A stretch of DNA of 24,956 nucleotides from IMG/VR virus record IMGVR_UViG_2923292180_000001; one strand, given 5' to 3'. The stretch is from a virus (taxonomy: Duplodnaviria > Heunggongvirae > Uroviricota > Caudoviricetes). The position numbers and the translations under genes are program-made. Every line of letters starts with the position of its first letter. The stretch's first letter is position 1. Of the stretch, positions 16,580 through 23,672 are shown one piece after another. Under the pieces are notes generated by a model that was not told the DNA's origin, searched no databases, and was given only the letters and a program-made list of their open reading frames with translations.

Positions 16580-17446
16580 CTAAGCGAGGTTCTTGTTTTC
16601 AAATTGTTCCGGACTGAGGCCGCCACACCAACTGTGCCGCCGCCACCGATTGTAATCACATTCGATATAATTAAACACCGTTGCCCGCATTATTTCCCGG
16701 CTGATAAAGTGTTCTCCATGGATACATTCCACTTTCAGCGAATGAAAGAAGCTTTCCACGCAGGCATTATCGTAGCAGCAACCTTTTGCGCTCATACTTC
16801 CACGCAGATTATGCCGCTTCAGTTGCGCCTGATAATCTGCTGAACAGTACTGGCCTCCACGGTCCGTGTGAACGATAACGTTCCGGGGCCTCTTACGCCG
16901 CCACAGCGCCATCTGCAGGGCATCGCAGGCCAGTTGCGCCGTCATGCGTGGCGACATTGACCAGCCAATAACGGCACGTGACCACAGGTCAATGACCACT
17001 GCCAGATACAGCCAGCCTTCATCTGTACGTAAGTACGTGATGTCTCCTGCCCACTTCTGGTTCGGGCCACTGGCGTAAAAATCCTGCTCCAACAGATTTT
17101 CTGACACAGGCAGGCCGTGTGCGCGGTAGCTGACCGGGCTGAACTTCCGGGAGGCCTTTGCCCTCAGTCCCTGACGGCGCAGGCTTGCCGCCACGGTTTT
17201 TACGTTAAAGGGGTAACCCTGAGCACGCAGTTCATCCGTCAGGCGTGGGGCACCGTAACGCTGTTTTGACCGGGTAAAAGCCGCGAGGACAACGCTGTCG
17301 CAGTGTTGGCGGAACTGCTGACGCGTGCTTATCCTTGTCCGCCGCTGACACCACGTATACCAGCCGCTGCGGGCCACCCGGAGCACGCGGCACATTGCTT
17401 TGATGCTGAACTCAGCCTGATGTTTTTCAATAAAGACATACTTCAT
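16580..17446 (-). CDS. insF: IS3 transposase OrfB (InsF), DDE catalytic domain
   Basis: 288-aa product [38 protein letters not shown]... recognised as IS3 InsF; overlaps the orfA stop (ATGA), as in the frameshift-fused IS3 arrangement. Confidence 0.9.
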
Positions 17447-17751
17447 TTCAGGCGCTTCGCGAAGTATGTCGCGGCCTTTTGGAGGATAGCCAGCTCTTCA
17501 TCCCGTTCTGCCAGCTGGCGTTTGAGACGTGCAATCTCGGTAGACATCTCCAGTTCACGTTCAGAAGACGTCTGCTGATTTTGCTGTTTACTGCGCCAGT
17601 TGTAGAGTTGTGATTCATACAGGCTGAGTTCACGGGCTGCGGCAGTAACACCGATGCGTTCAGCAAGCTTCAGGGCTTCACTGCGAAATTCAGGCGAATG
17701 CTGTTTACGGGGTTTTTTACTGGTTGATACTGTTTTTGTCATGTGAGTCAC
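17443..17751 (-). CDS. insE: IS3 transposase OrfA (InsE), helix-turn-helix / leucine zipper
   Basis: 102-aa [58 protein letters not shown]... recognised as IS3 InsE. Confidence 0.9.
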
Positions 17752-18895: not shown

Positions 18896-19029
18896 GAGGT
18901 TGCCCCGTATTCAGTGTCGCTGATTTGTATTGTCTGAAGTTGTTTTTACGTTAAGTTGATGCAGATCAATTAATACGATACCTGCGTCATAATTGATTAT
19001 TTGACGTGGTTTGATGGCCTCCACGCACG

Positions 19030-19283
19030 TTGTGATATGTAGATGATAATCATTATCACTTTACGGGTCCTTTCCGGTGATCCGACAGGTTACGGGGCGG
19101 CGACCTCGCGGGTTTTCGCTATTTATGAAAATTTTCCGGTTTAAGGTGTTTCCGTTCTTCTTCGTCGTAACTTAATGTTTTTATTTAAAATACCCCCTGA
19201 AAAGAAAGGAAACGACAGGTGCTGAAAGCGGGCTTTTTGGCCTTTGTCGTTTCCTTTCTCTGTTTTTGTCCGTGGAATGAACA
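19030..19283 (+). other. Lambda-type cos site (cosQ-cosN-cosB); cosN 12-nt cohesive-end sequence at 19095-19106
   Basis: ...TGATATGTAGATGATAATCATTATCACTTTACGGGTCCTTTCCGGTGATCCGACAGGTTACG | GGGCGGCGACCT CGCGGGTTTTCGCTATTTATGAAAATTTTCCGGTTTAAGG... is essentially the joined right and left ends of phage lambda; the nu1 ATG follows 189 bp after cosN. Confidence 0.85.
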
Positions 19284-19541
19284 ATGGAAGTCAACAAAAA
19301 GCAGCTGGCTGACATTTTCGGTGCGAGTATCCGTACCATTCAGAACTGGCAGGAACAGGGAATGCCCGTTCTGCGAGGCGGTGGCAAGGGTAATGAGGTG
19401 CTTTATGATTCTGCCGCCGTCATAAAATGGTATGCCGAAAGGGATGCTGAAATTGAGAACGAAAAGCTGCGCCGGGAAGTTGAAGAACTGCGGCAGGCCA
19501 GCGAGACAGATCTCCAGCCACCCGCGCTACGGCATGGGTAA
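19284..19541 (+). pseudogene. nohA: Terminase small subunit Nu1 N-terminal fragment (homology ends near 19520)
   Basis: MEVNKKQLADIFGASIRTIQNWQEQGMPVLRGGGKGNEVLYDSAAVIKWYAERDAEIENEKLRREVEELRQASE is the lambda Nu1 N-terminus; after about codon 79 the sequence departs from nu1 and continues as a J fragment in another frame. Confidence 0.85.
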
Positions 19542-20799
19542 ACGTCTTGGTGCGGCAGATGTGGATAAATGGGCGCTGTATGTCATCGGCCAGTGTTGCG
19601 ACCAGTCGGTGCCGGACGGTTTTGGCGGCACGGAGCCGCGCATCACCTGTAATGCCTGGCTGACCACACAGCGTAAGGCGTGGGATGTTCTCAGTGATTT
19701 CTGCTCGGCGATGCGCTGTATGCCGGTATGGAACGGGCAGACGCTGACGTTCGTGCAGGACCGACCATCAGATAAGGTGTGGACCTATAACCGCAGTAAT
19801 GTGGTGATGCCGGATGATGGCGCGCCGTTCCGCTACAGCTTCAGCGCCCTGAAGGACCGCCATAATGACGTTGAGGTGAACTGGATTGACCCGGATAACG
19901 GCTGGGAGACGGCGACAGAGCTTGTGGAGGACACGCAGGCCATTGCCCGTTACGGTCGTAACGTCACGAAGATGGATGCCTTTGGCTGTACCAGGCGGGG
20001 GCAGGCGCACCGAGCCGGGCTGTGGCTGATTAAAACGGAACTGCTGGAAACGCAGACCGTGGACTTCAGCGTGGGTGCCGAAGGGCTTCGCCATGTACCA
20101 GGTGATGTCATTGAAATCTGTGATGATGACTATGCGGGGATCAGCATCGGCGGGCGCGTGCTGGCGGTGAACAGCCAGACGCGGACACTGACGCTCGACC
20201 GTGAAATCACGCTGCCATCCTCCGGCACCACGCTGATAAGCCTGGTTGACGGGCAGGGTAATCCGGTGAGCGTGGAGGTCCAGTCCGTCACCGACGGCGT
20301 GAAGGTGAAAGTGAGCCGGGTTCCTGACGGCGTTGCCGAGTACAGCGTGTGGGGGCTGAAGCTGCCGACGCTGCGTCAGCGCCTGTTCCGCTGTGTGAGT
20401 ATCCGTGAGAACGATGACGGTACGTATGCCATCACTGCCGTGCAGCATGTACCGGAGAAAGAAGCCATCGTGGATAACGGGGCGCACTTTGACGGTGACC
20501 AGAGCGGCACGGTGAATGGTGTCACGCCGCCAGCAGTTCAGCACCTGACCGCAGAAGTCACCGCAGACAGCGGGGAATACCAGGTGCTGGCGCGCTGGGA
20601 CACGCCGAAGGTGGTGAAGGGGGTGAGCTTTATGCTTCGCCTGACCGTGGCAGCGGACGACGGCAGTGAGCGGTTGGTCAGCACGGCCCGGACGACGGAA
20701 ACCACATATCGCTTCACGCAGCTGGCGCTGGGAAATTACAGGCTGACAGTCCGGGCGGTAAATGCATGGGGACAGCCGGTGCACATACCCATTCGATGA
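19521..20799 (+). pseudogene. Internal fragment of tail tip/host-specificity protein J (about 420 codons), no native start
   Basis: The 455-aa ORF (19432..20799) reads ..PRYGMGKRLGAADVDKWALYVIGQCCDQSVPDGFGGTEPRITCNAW...[12 protein letters not shown], collinear with the central part of lambda J; it begins exactly where nu1 homology stops and ends at a second junction with stf. Confidence 0.85.
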
Positions 20800-21074
20800 C
20801 ATTTGTTTCAGGTGGTTCCAGTGGTGCTCCGGGAAGTGGATCACCTGATTATTCTAAATACAGTGTTAACACTTCTTCTGCAGGCGCTCATACGCACTCT
20901 GTATCGGGTACTGCTGCAAGCGCAGGTGCACACGCATATACTGTCGGTATTGGTGCTCATACGCACTCCGTTGCGATTGGTTCACATGGACATACCATCA
21001 CCGTTAACGCTGCTGGTAACGCGGAAAACACCGTCAAAAACATCGCATTTAACTATATTGTGAGGCTTGCGTAA
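20766..21074 (+). CDS. stfQ: Side tail fibre (Stf) C-terminal fragment, 102 aa, with HxH repeat motifs
   Basis: ..[63 protein letters not shown] matches the lambda Stf C-terminus; the ATG at 20766 lies in J-derived sequence; stop overlaps the tfa start (TAATG). Confidence 0.75.
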
Positions 21075-21649
21075 TGGCATTCAGAATGAGTGAACAACCA
21101 CGGACCATAAAAATTTATAATCTGCTGGCCGGAACTAATGAATTTATTGGTGAAGGTGACGCATATATTCCGCCTCATACAGGTCTGCCAGCAAACAGTA
21201 CCGATATTGCACCGCCAGATATTCCGGCAGGCTTCGTGGCTGTTTTCAACAGTGATGAGGCATCGTGGCATCTCGTTGAAGATCATCGGGGTAAAACGGT
21301 TTATGACGTGGCTTCCGGCGACGCGTTATTTATTTCTGAACTCGGTCCGTTACCGGAAAATGTTACCTGGTTATCGCCGGGAGGGGAATATCAGAAGTGG
21401 AACGGCACAGCCTGGGTGAAGGATACGGAAGCAGAAAAACTGTTCCGGATCCGGGAGGCGGAAGAAACAAAAAACAGCCTGATGCAGATAGCCAGTGAGC
21501 ATATAGCGCCGCTTCAGGATGCTGTGGATCTGGAGATCGCAACGGAGGAAGAAACCTTGTTGCTGGAAGCCTGGAAAAAGTATCGGGTGTTGCTGAACCG
21601 TGTTGATACATCAACTGCACCGGATATTGAATGGCCAGCACTGCCGTAG
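21074..21649 (+). CDS. tfaQ: Tail fibre assembly protein Tfa
   Basis: 191-aa product [71 protein letters not shown]... is nearly identical to lambda Tfa from memory. Confidence 0.9.
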
Positions 21650-21746
21650 GGTAAAACATATAAATTCTATAATTAGATGTATCTCTCCATTTACGGCAAG
21701 GAAGGGGGCTTGGAAGACGTAAAGCATCTCACACCGAGATTATTTT

Positions 21747-22337
21747 TTATATGTCAGGTGTCTGAAGTTTTGCTTTGGCTCTTAAAATGGTTTGCCGCGA
21801 GGTTTTGAATTCCCGGGCAATGGCACTTATACTTACACCTGACTTAATTCGTTCGAATACCACCTGTTTCTGTTCTTCATTTAACACAGGTGGTCGACCA
21901 AAACGTTTCCCTGCGCCGCGGGCTCTTACTATCCCGGAATGAGTGCGTTCAAGTAAAAGGTCTCGTTCAAATTCAGCGACTGCTGAAATTACGTGCATCA
22001 TCATTTTTCCTGTTGGACTGGTCAGGTCAATGCCCCCCAATGCTAAGCAATGCACTCTGATACCTGTTTCGGTCAGTTGTTCCACTGTTTTCCTGATATC
22101 CATTGCATTACAACCAAGGCGATCCAGTTTTGTCACAATCAATTGATCACCACATTTCAGGCGAGCAAGCAACCGGTTAAAACCAGGACGCTCACTGGTT
22201 GCTGCTGAGCCGCTAATGTGTTCTTCGATTATTTGCTGAGGTTTGATTTTAAAACCTGCACTTTCGATTTCCCGGCGTTGATTTTCGGTGGTCTGATCCA
22301 GCGTTGATATCCGACAGTAAGCAAAAATTCGAGACAT
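21747..22337 (-). CDS. pinQ: Serine DNA invertase of the Pin/Gin/Hin family
   Basis: 196-aa product [29 protein letters not shown]... has the catalytic Ser motif (YCRIST) and a C-terminal helix-turn-helix; convergent with tfaQ. Confidence 0.9.
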
Positions 22338-22653
22338 AGTGAGACTCTATACGAAATTGGTGTTCATATCATAATGCATCTCAGAAAATAATTTTGATTA
22401 TTTTTGTGCATATTTGTATGTACACGTTCGAAAATAAACGAATGCGTATGCAACCCCGTAACTTTGGTGAGACCCAAAATCGATTTTGTGAAAAATGGCT
22501 TTAACTCGGTTTGTTTTTCGAGTTCCGGGCGGACTCAAGGAAGAAGAATAGTGTTGCGTGTTATTTTAACCAGATTTCAAGTTGTTTGGTCGTGGAAAAG
22601 TGGAGCAAAATGTTGTTAAAGTGGAAAAATGATAAAAAAGTAAGTTTATTATA

Positions 22654-22887
22654 TTACATTTTACCATTTAAATTTTGGTTGTCTTTAAGAACTGATATCG
22701 CTGTTTGTAATAATTCTTTGTTATCCAGCCATGATTTTTTCTTTATGTTTCCTTCAATGTAATCAAGCAATGTTCTGGTATTGATAGGTCTTCCCTGTTT
22801 TGCTACTTCCACTACAGCATCCCCTAGGATAATTCTGACTTCAGGAAGCTGCGCAGGGAACCACTTTAGGGTGTCTTTTGATTTCAT
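22654..22887 (-). CDS. ydfK: YdfK/YnaE-family cold-shock-induced protein (77 aa)
   Basis: From the internal Met of the 88-aa ORF: MKSKDTLKWFPAQLPEVRIILGDAVVEVAKQGRPINTRTLLDYIEGNIKKK...; long AT-rich upstream leader. Confidence 0.8.
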   Translation of the reverse strand: MKSKDTLKWFPAQLPEVRIILGDAVVEVAKQGRPINTRTLLDYIEGNIKKKSWLDNKELLQTAISVLKDNQNLNGKM

Positions 22888-23672
22888 GAATATATTCCTT
22901 AAAATATTATTGATTTTCATTGCGATATTGTATGTCTGATTCAGGATATGTTGACTTATACATCGGTTTTGTCTGGGTTATTGGATATGCCAATCCCTAA
23001 TTTTATTAGAGCATGACTAAAAATGCTGAATATGATAAGGAGCGAAGTGATTATCAGTATGCTGTTCATATAGCCTCGAATTAGTAATGTGTTATATATG
23101 ATATAGTTGACAATTTTTATCCTGGGTGTTCTTAAAGTTCGTAGATAAACATTGTCGTTTCAGGTATACAGGAATGCTAACAGATGGCGGCAAAAATCAG
23201 GCGGTTTATGGCGCAAGCTGAAGTGGCAACTGCAAACTATCTTATGCAGAGACTCTACACGGATTGGGTTTAAAAGTATACATAGATAACAGTTTTTATC
23301 TGAAGAAGAAAAATATCAAGGTGATATAGCCTATATGCCTTTGATGTGGAGGAATGAATGTGATGGGAGTGATGTATCTGAATAGTTGAAAAACCGCAGA
23401 CACGCCTTATGCAAGAACGTGCTGCGGTTGGCTGGTAAATTTTTCGATAGTGCGAGTATTGAATGATTTCCAGCCGTTATTGATTTTACGCGTAACTCCA
23501 TGAAAAAACTACTTATCTGTTGAGGAGTTTTTTTGGGGCATATATGGGACAGAAATGGGCCCCAGATAGACACTGAGATCGAACTTAGGATGCTTTTTAA
23601 AAAATGCAACTATCTGAAAAAACCTAGAAAACGCCAAGGAAACCACAGGATGGGAAAAAACACCTGTGAATT

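Follow-up and report, generated by a model that had tools for sequence, protein, structure and literature searches.

The pinQ locus of prophage Qin

The DNA analyzed here is a stretch of 24,956 nucleotides (nt) from virus record IMGVR_UViG_2923292180_000001 (Caudoviricetes), referred to below as the window, which corresponds to the end of the cryptic Escherichia coli prophage Qin. Our analysis concerns the recombinase gene pinQ and the 316-bp spacer between pinQ and its upstream neighbor ydfK, which contains a perfect 14-bp palindrome. A 1.1-kb query covering this region matched 3082 of 5426 complete E. coli genomes, in which the matching genes are annotated as tfaQ, pinQ and ydfK, and pinQ and pinR, the latter present on prophage Rac, occur in about half of the complete E. 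coli genomes. The gene order in the K-12 record is the same (ydfJ, ydfK, pinQ, tfaQ, stfQ, nohA). The positions of the genes and of the features discussed below are given in Table 1.

PinQ combines a Resolvase domain (PF00239, E=3.6e-36) with a C-terminal HTH_7 domain (PF02796, E=3.8e-11), a two-domain build that is also found in Tn3-family TnpR proteins. A preliminary description of the locus, made from the sequence, had stated that pinQ is convergent with a single stf-tfa set of which no inverted second copy exists. Both statements are borne out by the present results. The set consists of tfaQ and a truncated stf gene, a second copy of TfaQ or of the Stf C-terminus was not detected in the window by tblastn, and minus-strand self-BLAST of positions 19000-23000 against the window produced only chance matches of 12-15 nt. 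The window also contains no Tn3-type transposase and no transposon ends, the neighbors of pinQ being tfaQ and ydfK, and PADLOC contained no model fitting PinQ or YdfK.

Table 1. Positions of genes and sequence features in the pinQ region of the window (ORF, open reading frame)
Feature	Position	Strand	Basis
J-protein fragment, preceding the stfQ remnant	19432-20799	+	ORF list, Pfam
stfQ, C-terminal remnant of side tail fibre gene	20766-21074	+	Pfam Phage_fiber, Phage-tail_3 and Ig_J covering stfQ and the J-protein fragment
tfaQ, sole tail-fibre assembly gene of the window, convergent with pinQ	21074-21649	+	Pfam Caudo_TAP
pinQ, 196-amino-acid small serine recombinase	21747-22337	-	ORF list; Pfam Resolvase N-terminal domain and HTH_7
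pinQ codon 76 (TGT, Cys), motif KLDRLG[R], position of Tn3/gamma-delta R71	22110-22112	-	Alignment; HMMER against gamma-delta and Gin structures
pinQ codon 11 (Ser), nucleophile position, motif YxRxST, retained	22305-22307	-	Alignment; Ser in 22/22 alleles
Putative relic res subsite III, minus strand TGAACACCAATTTCGTATA	22348-22366	-	In register with TGTACACCCATTTCGTACA; half-site TATACGAAA scores 12.8 bits, family median 15.3
Probable -10 hexamer TATGAT, adjoining subsite III	22368-22373	-	Alignment with relatives
Putative relic res subsite II, 32 bp, minus strand TGCACAAAAATAATCAAAATTATTTTCTGAGA	22379-22410	-	In register with pColV TATCCGAAAGTCAGCGAAATTACTTTCGGACA; outer half-sites 5.4 and 2.5 bits
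Putative relic res subsite I, ancestral crossover site, 26 bp, minus strand CATACGCATTCGTTTATTTTCGAACG	22425-22450	-	In register with TGTCCGAAA-N8-TTTCGGACA
Perfect 14-bp palindrome CAAAATCGATTTTG; core AAAATCGATTTT at 22476-22487	22475-22488	.	25 bp beyond relic site I
ydfK, cold-shock protein YdfK, upstream neighbor of pinQ, same strand	22654-22920	-	Annotation of matching records; phrog_2718
ydfJ, truncated transporter gene	from 23673	+	ORF list, Pfam

PinQ is most similar to resolvase-type proteins of plasmids and transposons

PinQ is 99% identical to PinR of Rac; in strains with both Rac and Qin the two pin regions are located about 200 kb from each other, in inverted orientation. Like the members of the Din family (Gin of Mu, Cin of P1, Hin of Salmonella and PinE of e14), PinQ is a small serine recombinase that has a helix-turn-helix at its C-terminus, is encoded beside phage tail-fibre genes, and has been reported to affect inversion of the P segment of e14. 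Its identity to Din-type invertases is low however (39% with PinE, 36% with Gin, 39% with the P88 invertase), whereas 14 relatives encoded by plasmids or transposons are 59-85% identical. In a scan of one genome per species, relatives that are 59-78% identical were found in Shewanella, Erwinia, Photorhabdus, Budvicia, Mycoavidus, Sphingobium and further genera, and about 1,650 plasmid records, chiefly of Klebsiella, Escherichia and Enterobacter, encode proteins that are 60-90% identical. In Shewanella, the gene for the relative (77% identical) is placed back-to-back with one for a 1034-amino-acid protein bearing DDE_Tnp_Tn3 and DUF4158 domains, and two more relatives have DUF4158-bearing neighbors at the same position as the Shewanella transposase. 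The relatives with such a transposon context (Tn3-type transposase, terminal inverted repeats) are L017, L020 and L023. With 39% identity to PinE and 60-84% to proteins whose genes have res arrays (see below) and in some cases lie beside Tn3-family transposases, PinQ is misnamed when it is called a Pin-family invertase, as it was in the preliminary description. The match scores of PinQ were 82 bits with gamma-delta resolvase and 109 bits with Gin, and the low identity to gamma-delta itself indicates that the PinQ clade is a distinct branch of the small serine recombinases.

The arrangement of the locus also differs from that of the Din systems. In these, the invertase gene reads away from the invertible segment and a crossover site is located about 66 nt upstream of its start codon: the center of pixR (TTCTCCCAAACCAACGTTTATGAAAA) is located 66 nt before the ATG of pinE, and that of gixR 67 nt before the ATG of gin. 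The Din genes also contain, within their 5' end, a Fis-dependent recombinational enhancer, the Fis sites of which are highly degenerate in sequence. Instead, pinQ converges on tfaQ, and the space upstream of it is occupied by an array of the res type. In addition, the order in which stf-tfa is followed by pin and ydfK/ynaE on the opposite strand is also present in Rac, in the viable lambdoid phages 2H10 and Turner, and in prophages adjoining prfC. The recurrence of this layout in viable phages and in Rac argues that it is the native arrangement of a phage clade and not the remnant of a deleted invertible segment. The earlier view of pinQ as an orphan that has lost such a segment is therefore not upheld.

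These results bear on the explanation that pinQ encodes a Gin/Hin/Pin-type invertase whose invertible tail-fibre segment has been deleted, and that the palindrome is a relic gix/hix-like crossover site. This would account for the tail-fibre genes adjoining pinQ and agrees with its annotation as "DNA invertase" (phrog_125 and phage annotations). It is at odds with the 36-39% identity to Din invertases, with the orientation of pinQ towards tfa, with the layout kept in viable phages and with the putative ancestral res array that fills the space between the palindrome and pinQ. Together with the properties of the palindrome described below, this makes the explanation highly improbable.

A putative relic res array is located upstream of pinQ

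The res sites of Tn3 and gamma-delta consist of three dimer-binding subsites located between the divergent tnpA and tnpR genes, and the distal subsite is the crossover site. Twelve relatives of pinQ have in common a conserved array of three subsites, which immediately precedes the gene, overlaps its promoter and is composed of 9-bp half-sites in inverted orientation. In the order towards the ATG these are site I, a 26-bp inverted repeat (TGTCCGAAA-N8-TTTCGGACA; canonical family form TGTCCGAAATCGACCGGTTTCGGACA), site II of 32 bp (TATCCGAAAGTCAGCGAAATTACTTTCGGACA, as in pColV), and site III of 19 bp (TGTACACCCATTTCGTACA), which adjoins a TATAAT hexamer. The corresponding subsites of Tn3 are 28, 34 and 25 bp long. 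Judged by this similarity to the organization of Tn3/gamma-delta res, the members of the clade may be read as TnpR-type resolvases with a res site. From nine relatives we built a matrix for the half-sites (consensus TGTACGAAA; family median 15.3 bits). The PinQ-family protein probably binds TGT(A/C)CGAAA half-sites in the plasmid and transposon relatives.

The region upstream of pinQ aligns in register with the arrays of the relatives, and the window appears to retain all three subsites. They are in register yet degenerate, their half-sites scoring 1.1-12.8 bits. Site I appears to be the most eroded one, with 1.1 (left) and 9.7 bits for half-sites that score 15.3 bits each in pColV. Summed over the five half-sites scored, the ColV-plasmid homologue reaches 74 bits, the 2H10-type prophages 44 bits and Qin 32 bits. 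Despite this decay, half-sites scoring 5 bits or more occur five times within 143 bp upstream of pinQ, where their density in the window predicts 0.69. The locus resembles Tn3 and Tn1000 (gamma-delta) in the build of its protein and, apparently, in the order of its subsites, and differs from them in that a transposase and transposon ends are absent, the subsites are eroded, and the equivalent of R71 is a cysteine (see below). From the Din systems it differs in having a putative ancestral res array in place of a single crossover site. Taken together, these similarities suggest that pinQ is probably a res-tnpR cassette such as Tn3-family transposons carry and not a Din invertase that has lost its segment.

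Two observations were made on the arrays of relatives. In Erwinia oleae (L021, 1271-2649) two PinQ-like genes are arranged head-to-head around one shared site I, forming a symmetric III'-II'-I-II-III array. On plasmid pAPEC-O2-211A-ColV (L007, 4631-5210) the sequence beyond site I that is shared with Qin stops at GGAATTCGG, and an annotated IS110-family transposase gene begins about 350 bp past that point.

PinQ contains a cysteine at the position of a catalytic arginine and is under purifying selection

HMMER alignment to solved structures places Cys76 of PinQ opposite R71 of gamma-delta resolvase. An arginine is present at the equivalent position in all 16 other proteins aligned (13/13 members of the family and the three Din invertases PinE, Gin and that of P88), and the cysteine is shared by PinQ and an O121-strain allele that is 90% identical to it. 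Among the nearest 120 clusters at 90% identity, 112 have Arg and five have Cys; these five all belong to the PinQ/PinR clade and together comprise thousands of member sequences. The remaining three did not match the pattern, and the one printed (P0006) has the Arg in LARLGR, the preceding Asp being replaced by Ala. Compared to the full catalytic set of Tn3 resolvase (Y6, R8, S10, D36, R68 and R71), PinQ keeps Y7, R9, S11 and R73, and the D36 position is occupied by Glu throughout the clade.

R71 is listed among the six residues that are most important for catalysis by Tn3 resolvase; no in vivo resolution was detectable with mutants R71A and R71K, and cleavage was about 1000-fold slower (PMC2794168). 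The statement that pinQ is intact can therefore be maintained in part: its frame of 196 codons is uninterrupted, but codon 76 specifies Cys where the catalytic Arg is expected. The substitution is of a type that, in Tn3 resolvase, abolishes activity.

Cys76 is nevertheless not accompanied by signs of decay. We identified 95 full-length copies of the gene, which fall into 22 alleles; among these, 14 differences are synonymous and 8 nonsynonymous. Stop codons and insertions or deletions were absent from these copies, and Cys76 was present in every allele. The ratio of nonsynonymous to synonymous substitution rates (dN/dS) between pinQ and the allele on pColV is 0.16. Purifying selection acts on the Cys clade, which is not decaying.

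In some lambdoid prophages the pin allele is a mosaic (P0003, P0005, P0007 and P0008; locus L122, 2770-3591). The 5' part of the gene and the promoter-proximal part of res are of the ColV-plasmid type and encode Arg76, and the remainder is of the prophage type; the switch point is located inside relic site II or within the gene. These alleles indicate that pin genes of prophages have recombined with resolvase genes of plasmids. Prophage alleles encoding Arg76 are rare and were considered as the ancestral state, a possibility that was rejected as the allele in question (L122/P0008) is a recombinant with a plasmid-type gene whose switch lies inside relic site II. The PinQ protein of the window differs from that of K-12 MG1655 (L003, 9623-10213) by three residues (R3Q, H115Q and V158A), and the two genes have no synonymous differences.

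The effect of PinQ on the e14 P segment

The preliminary description had assumed that PinQ lacks a local substrate and might act in trans elsewhere in the genome. Action in trans agrees with a published result: Kirigo et al. (Nucleic Acids Res 2025; PMC12529663) report that overproduction of PinQ increased inversion of the 1797-bp P segment of e14 from 30% to 88%. P-segment inversion yields the chimeric fibre StfE2, which blocks adsorption of T2. The authors also surveyed genomes by BLAST and detected inversions solely in e14 and none in Qin or Rac, which confirms that a local substrate is lacking. The gene studied there is the same as the one analyzed here. The paper treats PinQ as a PinE-like invertase, and its accessible text does not mention a resolvase ancestry, a relic res site or Cys76.

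One explanation of these data is that PinQ is a fully competent invertase which itself inverts the P segment at the pix sites, in which case the upstream region and the palindrome would be irrelevant. Beside the 88% of inverted cells, this is in line with the findings that the effect needs both the pix-bearing genes and e14, and that T2 infection induces pinQ and pinR 14-fold (PMC12529663). Other values given in that paper count against it. According to its Table S4, the level of inversion is 30% in the wild type, 22% in a pinQ deletion strain and 1.5% in a pinE deletion strain in which pinQ and pinR are intact. The near loss of inversion upon deletion of pinE leaves direct catalysis by PinQ unproven. 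Moreover, overproduction of PinE resulted in 49% inversion (PMC12529663), as expected of a reversible invertase. A reversible enzyme would drive the ratio to about 50%, and the 88% obtained with PinQ hence requires bias or selection. Neither overproduction of PinQ in a strain lacking pinE nor an in vitro inversion assay with PinQ is reported in the accessible text (PMC12529663). In addition, Cys76 replaces the residue whose loss slows cleavage by Tn3 resolvase, and the pix half-sites fit the PinQ-family matrix poorly, with 4.3-4.5 bits. Based on Cys76, the 39% identity to PinE, the poor fit of the pix sites and the data of Table S4, an indirect or modulatory role of PinQ appears at least as likely as direct catalysis, and we consider it rather unlikely that PinQ is a fully competent invertase.

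There is precedent for a prophage recombinase working elsewhere in the genome. To our knowledge, the known cross-acting pairs are close homologues within the Din family that have matching crossover sites, and in this respect PinQ, which is not a close Din-family homologue, differs from them. An example of such cross-action is Fin of prophage Fels-2, which acts on the H segment of Salmonella (cited in PMC12529663).

The palindrome upstream of pinQ

The palindrome CAAAATCGATTTTG is present where it had been described; its distance to the ATG of pinQ (position 22337), previously given as about 140 nt, is 138 nt. Perfect palindromes of at least 14 bp are no rarity in DNA of this composition: the window contains three, first-order Markov simulations of the window gave a mean of 1.6, and at least one was present in 81% of the simulated windows. 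The palindrome is located outside the ancestral res region. The stretch around it has a diverged counterpart in the homologue on the ColV plasmid, and this counterpart does not contain the same dyad.

To its A-tract half-site character of the gix/hix type, proposed in the preliminary description, the following results apply. On a Din crossover matrix built from gixL, gixR, pixL and pixR and scanned over the whole window, the 26-mer centered on the palindrome scored 1.6 bits, against 27-30 bits for the four real sites. One arm alone (TTTTCACAAAAT) shows a weak likeness with 5.7 bits and ranks 137th among 49,890 half-sites, which is the one property of the palindrome in favor of a relic crossover site. 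Din crossover sites are 26 bp long (TTnTCnnAAACC-NN-GGTTTnnGAnAA) and occur as an inverted pair around a segment beside the invertase gene; the best 26-mer in the whole window reached 13.3 bits, which indicates that no Din-type site is present in the window, the interior of stf included. The core dinucleotide of Din sites is AA or GA and fixes their orientation. The center of the palindrome is CG, which is self-complementary and, unlike these cores, could not set an orientation. Finally, the palindrome has no partner in the window: no second copy exists at up to two mismatches, and the search for inverted repeats described above returned chance matches only. The idea that it is a relic recombination site thus finds no support in its score or in the presence of a second site.

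We also considered the explanation that the palindrome is a functional dyad operator, bound by PinQ or by another host or phage DNA-binding protein, which would control pinQ or transcripts reading through from ydfK. All intact copies among the 89 analyzed have the same core AAAATCGATTTT, including those of the 2H10 lineage in which the intergenic region is about 10% diverged, and it is degraded in one pseudogenised copy (L028). The number of such palindromes expected in the 316-bp spacer is 0.02, a figure that was calculated post hoc. Conservation of the core across the Qin and 2H10 lineages has however a probability of about 0.26 by chance and is not significant, and the outermost pair varies without symmetry (C/G in 64 copies, A/T in 11, A/A in 3, A/G in 3 and C/A in 1). 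The dyad is not conserved on pColV, as described above. A search of the spacer gave no Rfam match and no terminator-like site; the RNA fold at the palindrome is not significant (z-score of -1.05), and in the minimum-energy structure the palindrome forms no hairpin of its own. Per-column conservation in 38 distinct upstream sequences, a noisy set with a few divergent members and too little diversity to carry weight, showed no dip in variability at the palindrome. A literature search for the 12-mer core yielded seven papers, none of them on E. coli or phage DNA. An operator function of the palindrome is therefore doubtful. It most likely is an incidental AT-rich dyad, with a minor chance that it is at most an uncharacterised operator.

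Several more specific interpretations of the palindrome and its surroundings were rejected. As a binding site for the PinQ family it fails on the half-site matrix, on which its arms score no more than 2.5 bits. A compensatory change of the outer pair (C...G in Qin, A...T in 2H10) is not upheld by the 89 copies. The center AATCGATT resembles what we take to be an idealised Cra box, an operator of the LacI/Cra type, but the outer TG/CA is missing. A small ORF on the plus strand (MALTRFVFRVPGGLKEEE, 22495-22551), which starts 7 nt past the palindrome, was judged to be non-coding: in an alignment read by eye, three amino acids are replaced in the 2H10 type while none of the codons differs synonymously, the only other change being TAG to TAA at the stop, and the pColV stretch has ATA at the position of the ATG.

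Two minor features were noted near or in connection with the palindrome. An inverted repeat (AACTCG-N10-CGAGTT, 22503-22524) is located between ydfK and the palindrome. Its minus-strand 5' arm has changed from AACTCG to AGTTCG in the 2H10-type lineage, so that pairing in a minus-strand RNA is retained only via G.U wobble; this may point to an RNA stem in the 3' region of ydfK or in the leader of pinQ. In phage Mu (L040, 4542-4551) the 10-mer TCGATTTTGG, which matches the right palindrome arm of Qin and two further bases, is located 4 nt after gixR. It is missing from the equivalent region of e14 and probably is a coincidence.

A possible role for PinQ as a DNA-binding protein

The explanation that we favor, with a probability of roughly 0.6 and based on sequence comparison, is that pinQ is a domesticated resolvase cassette with a decayed res site, that its product has mainly a DNA-binding role, and that the palindrome is incidental. 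The res-tnpR cassette would be an accessory gene that is native to a clade of lambdoid phages. In the plasmid and transposon relatives, crossover would take place at subsite I, and subsites II and III would overlap the promoter. In the lineage of Qin, Rac and 2H10 the transposase would have been lost, the three subsites would have remained in register while eroding, site I most, and the active-site Arg would have become Cys. That pinQ is kept open under purifying selection suggests that PinQ most likely acts mainly via DNA binding. PinQ may repress its own promoter through relic sites III and II, and may have other targets as well. It would be at most a very weak recombinase, and inversion of the P segment probably is executed by PinE and modulated by PinQ. 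A domesticated transposon-type res-tnpR cassette with an eroded target, an active site without the key Arg, and purifying selection is a variation on a known kind of system.

Several points weigh against this explanation. Kirigo et al. report the rise of inversion to 88% upon overproduction of PinQ and term it an active invertase (PMC12529663). The R71 mutants of Tn3 resolvase are described as "not inert" (PMC2794168), and PinQ, which lacks this Arg, may have residual activity at high dosage. The recognition helix of its helix-turn-helix is unchanged from that of relatives with canonical sites, though its own upstream sites have decayed. The purifying selection implies a function beyond self-repression alone. 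Lastly, conservation of the palindrome core between two lineages that are about 10% diverged is weakly compatible with a function of the palindrome.

A related possibility, which we put forward tentatively and consider the less probable one, is that PinQ and PinR are exapted resolvases without catalytic competence that lambdoid phages maintain as DNA-binding factors biasing the segment flipped by PinE, in which case the AAAATCGATTTT dyad could be a new binding site. If so, PinQ and PinR would be recombinases turned into a factor for regulation or recombination directionality, and their reported anti-phage effect would operate via a bias in orientation.

The pair pinQ/pinR has recently been promoted as the first "recombinase-activated" phage-defence system. 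If PinQ is a resolvase derivative that lacks a key catalytic Arg, the published mechanism of direct inversion needs re-testing, and pinQ would be an example of a recombinase turned regulator. The trans effect of PinQ on e14 is already published; relative to that work (PMC12529663), the putative resolvase ancestry, the relic res site and Cys76 are what is added here. For annotation, the favored explanation would mean that "DNA invertase" labels beside tail-fibre genes can mislead, and that there never was an invertible segment of the kind that seemed to be missing. By itself, the palindrome matters little.

Other features of the window

The remaining observations concern the region that precedes pinQ. 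The 3' half of tfaQ (21417-21615, plus strand) contains a full-length match to Rfam family IS009 (RF02111) of 221.5 bits, the gathering score being 117. The Qin copy of the window differs from the K-12 reference in two respects. ORFs of 288 and 102 amino acids at 16580-17751 would represent a putative insertion sequence of the IS3 type. In the region 19284-21074, a 455-amino-acid J-protein fragment (Phage-tail_3, Ig_J) is located between a nohA-like N-terminus and the stf remnant.

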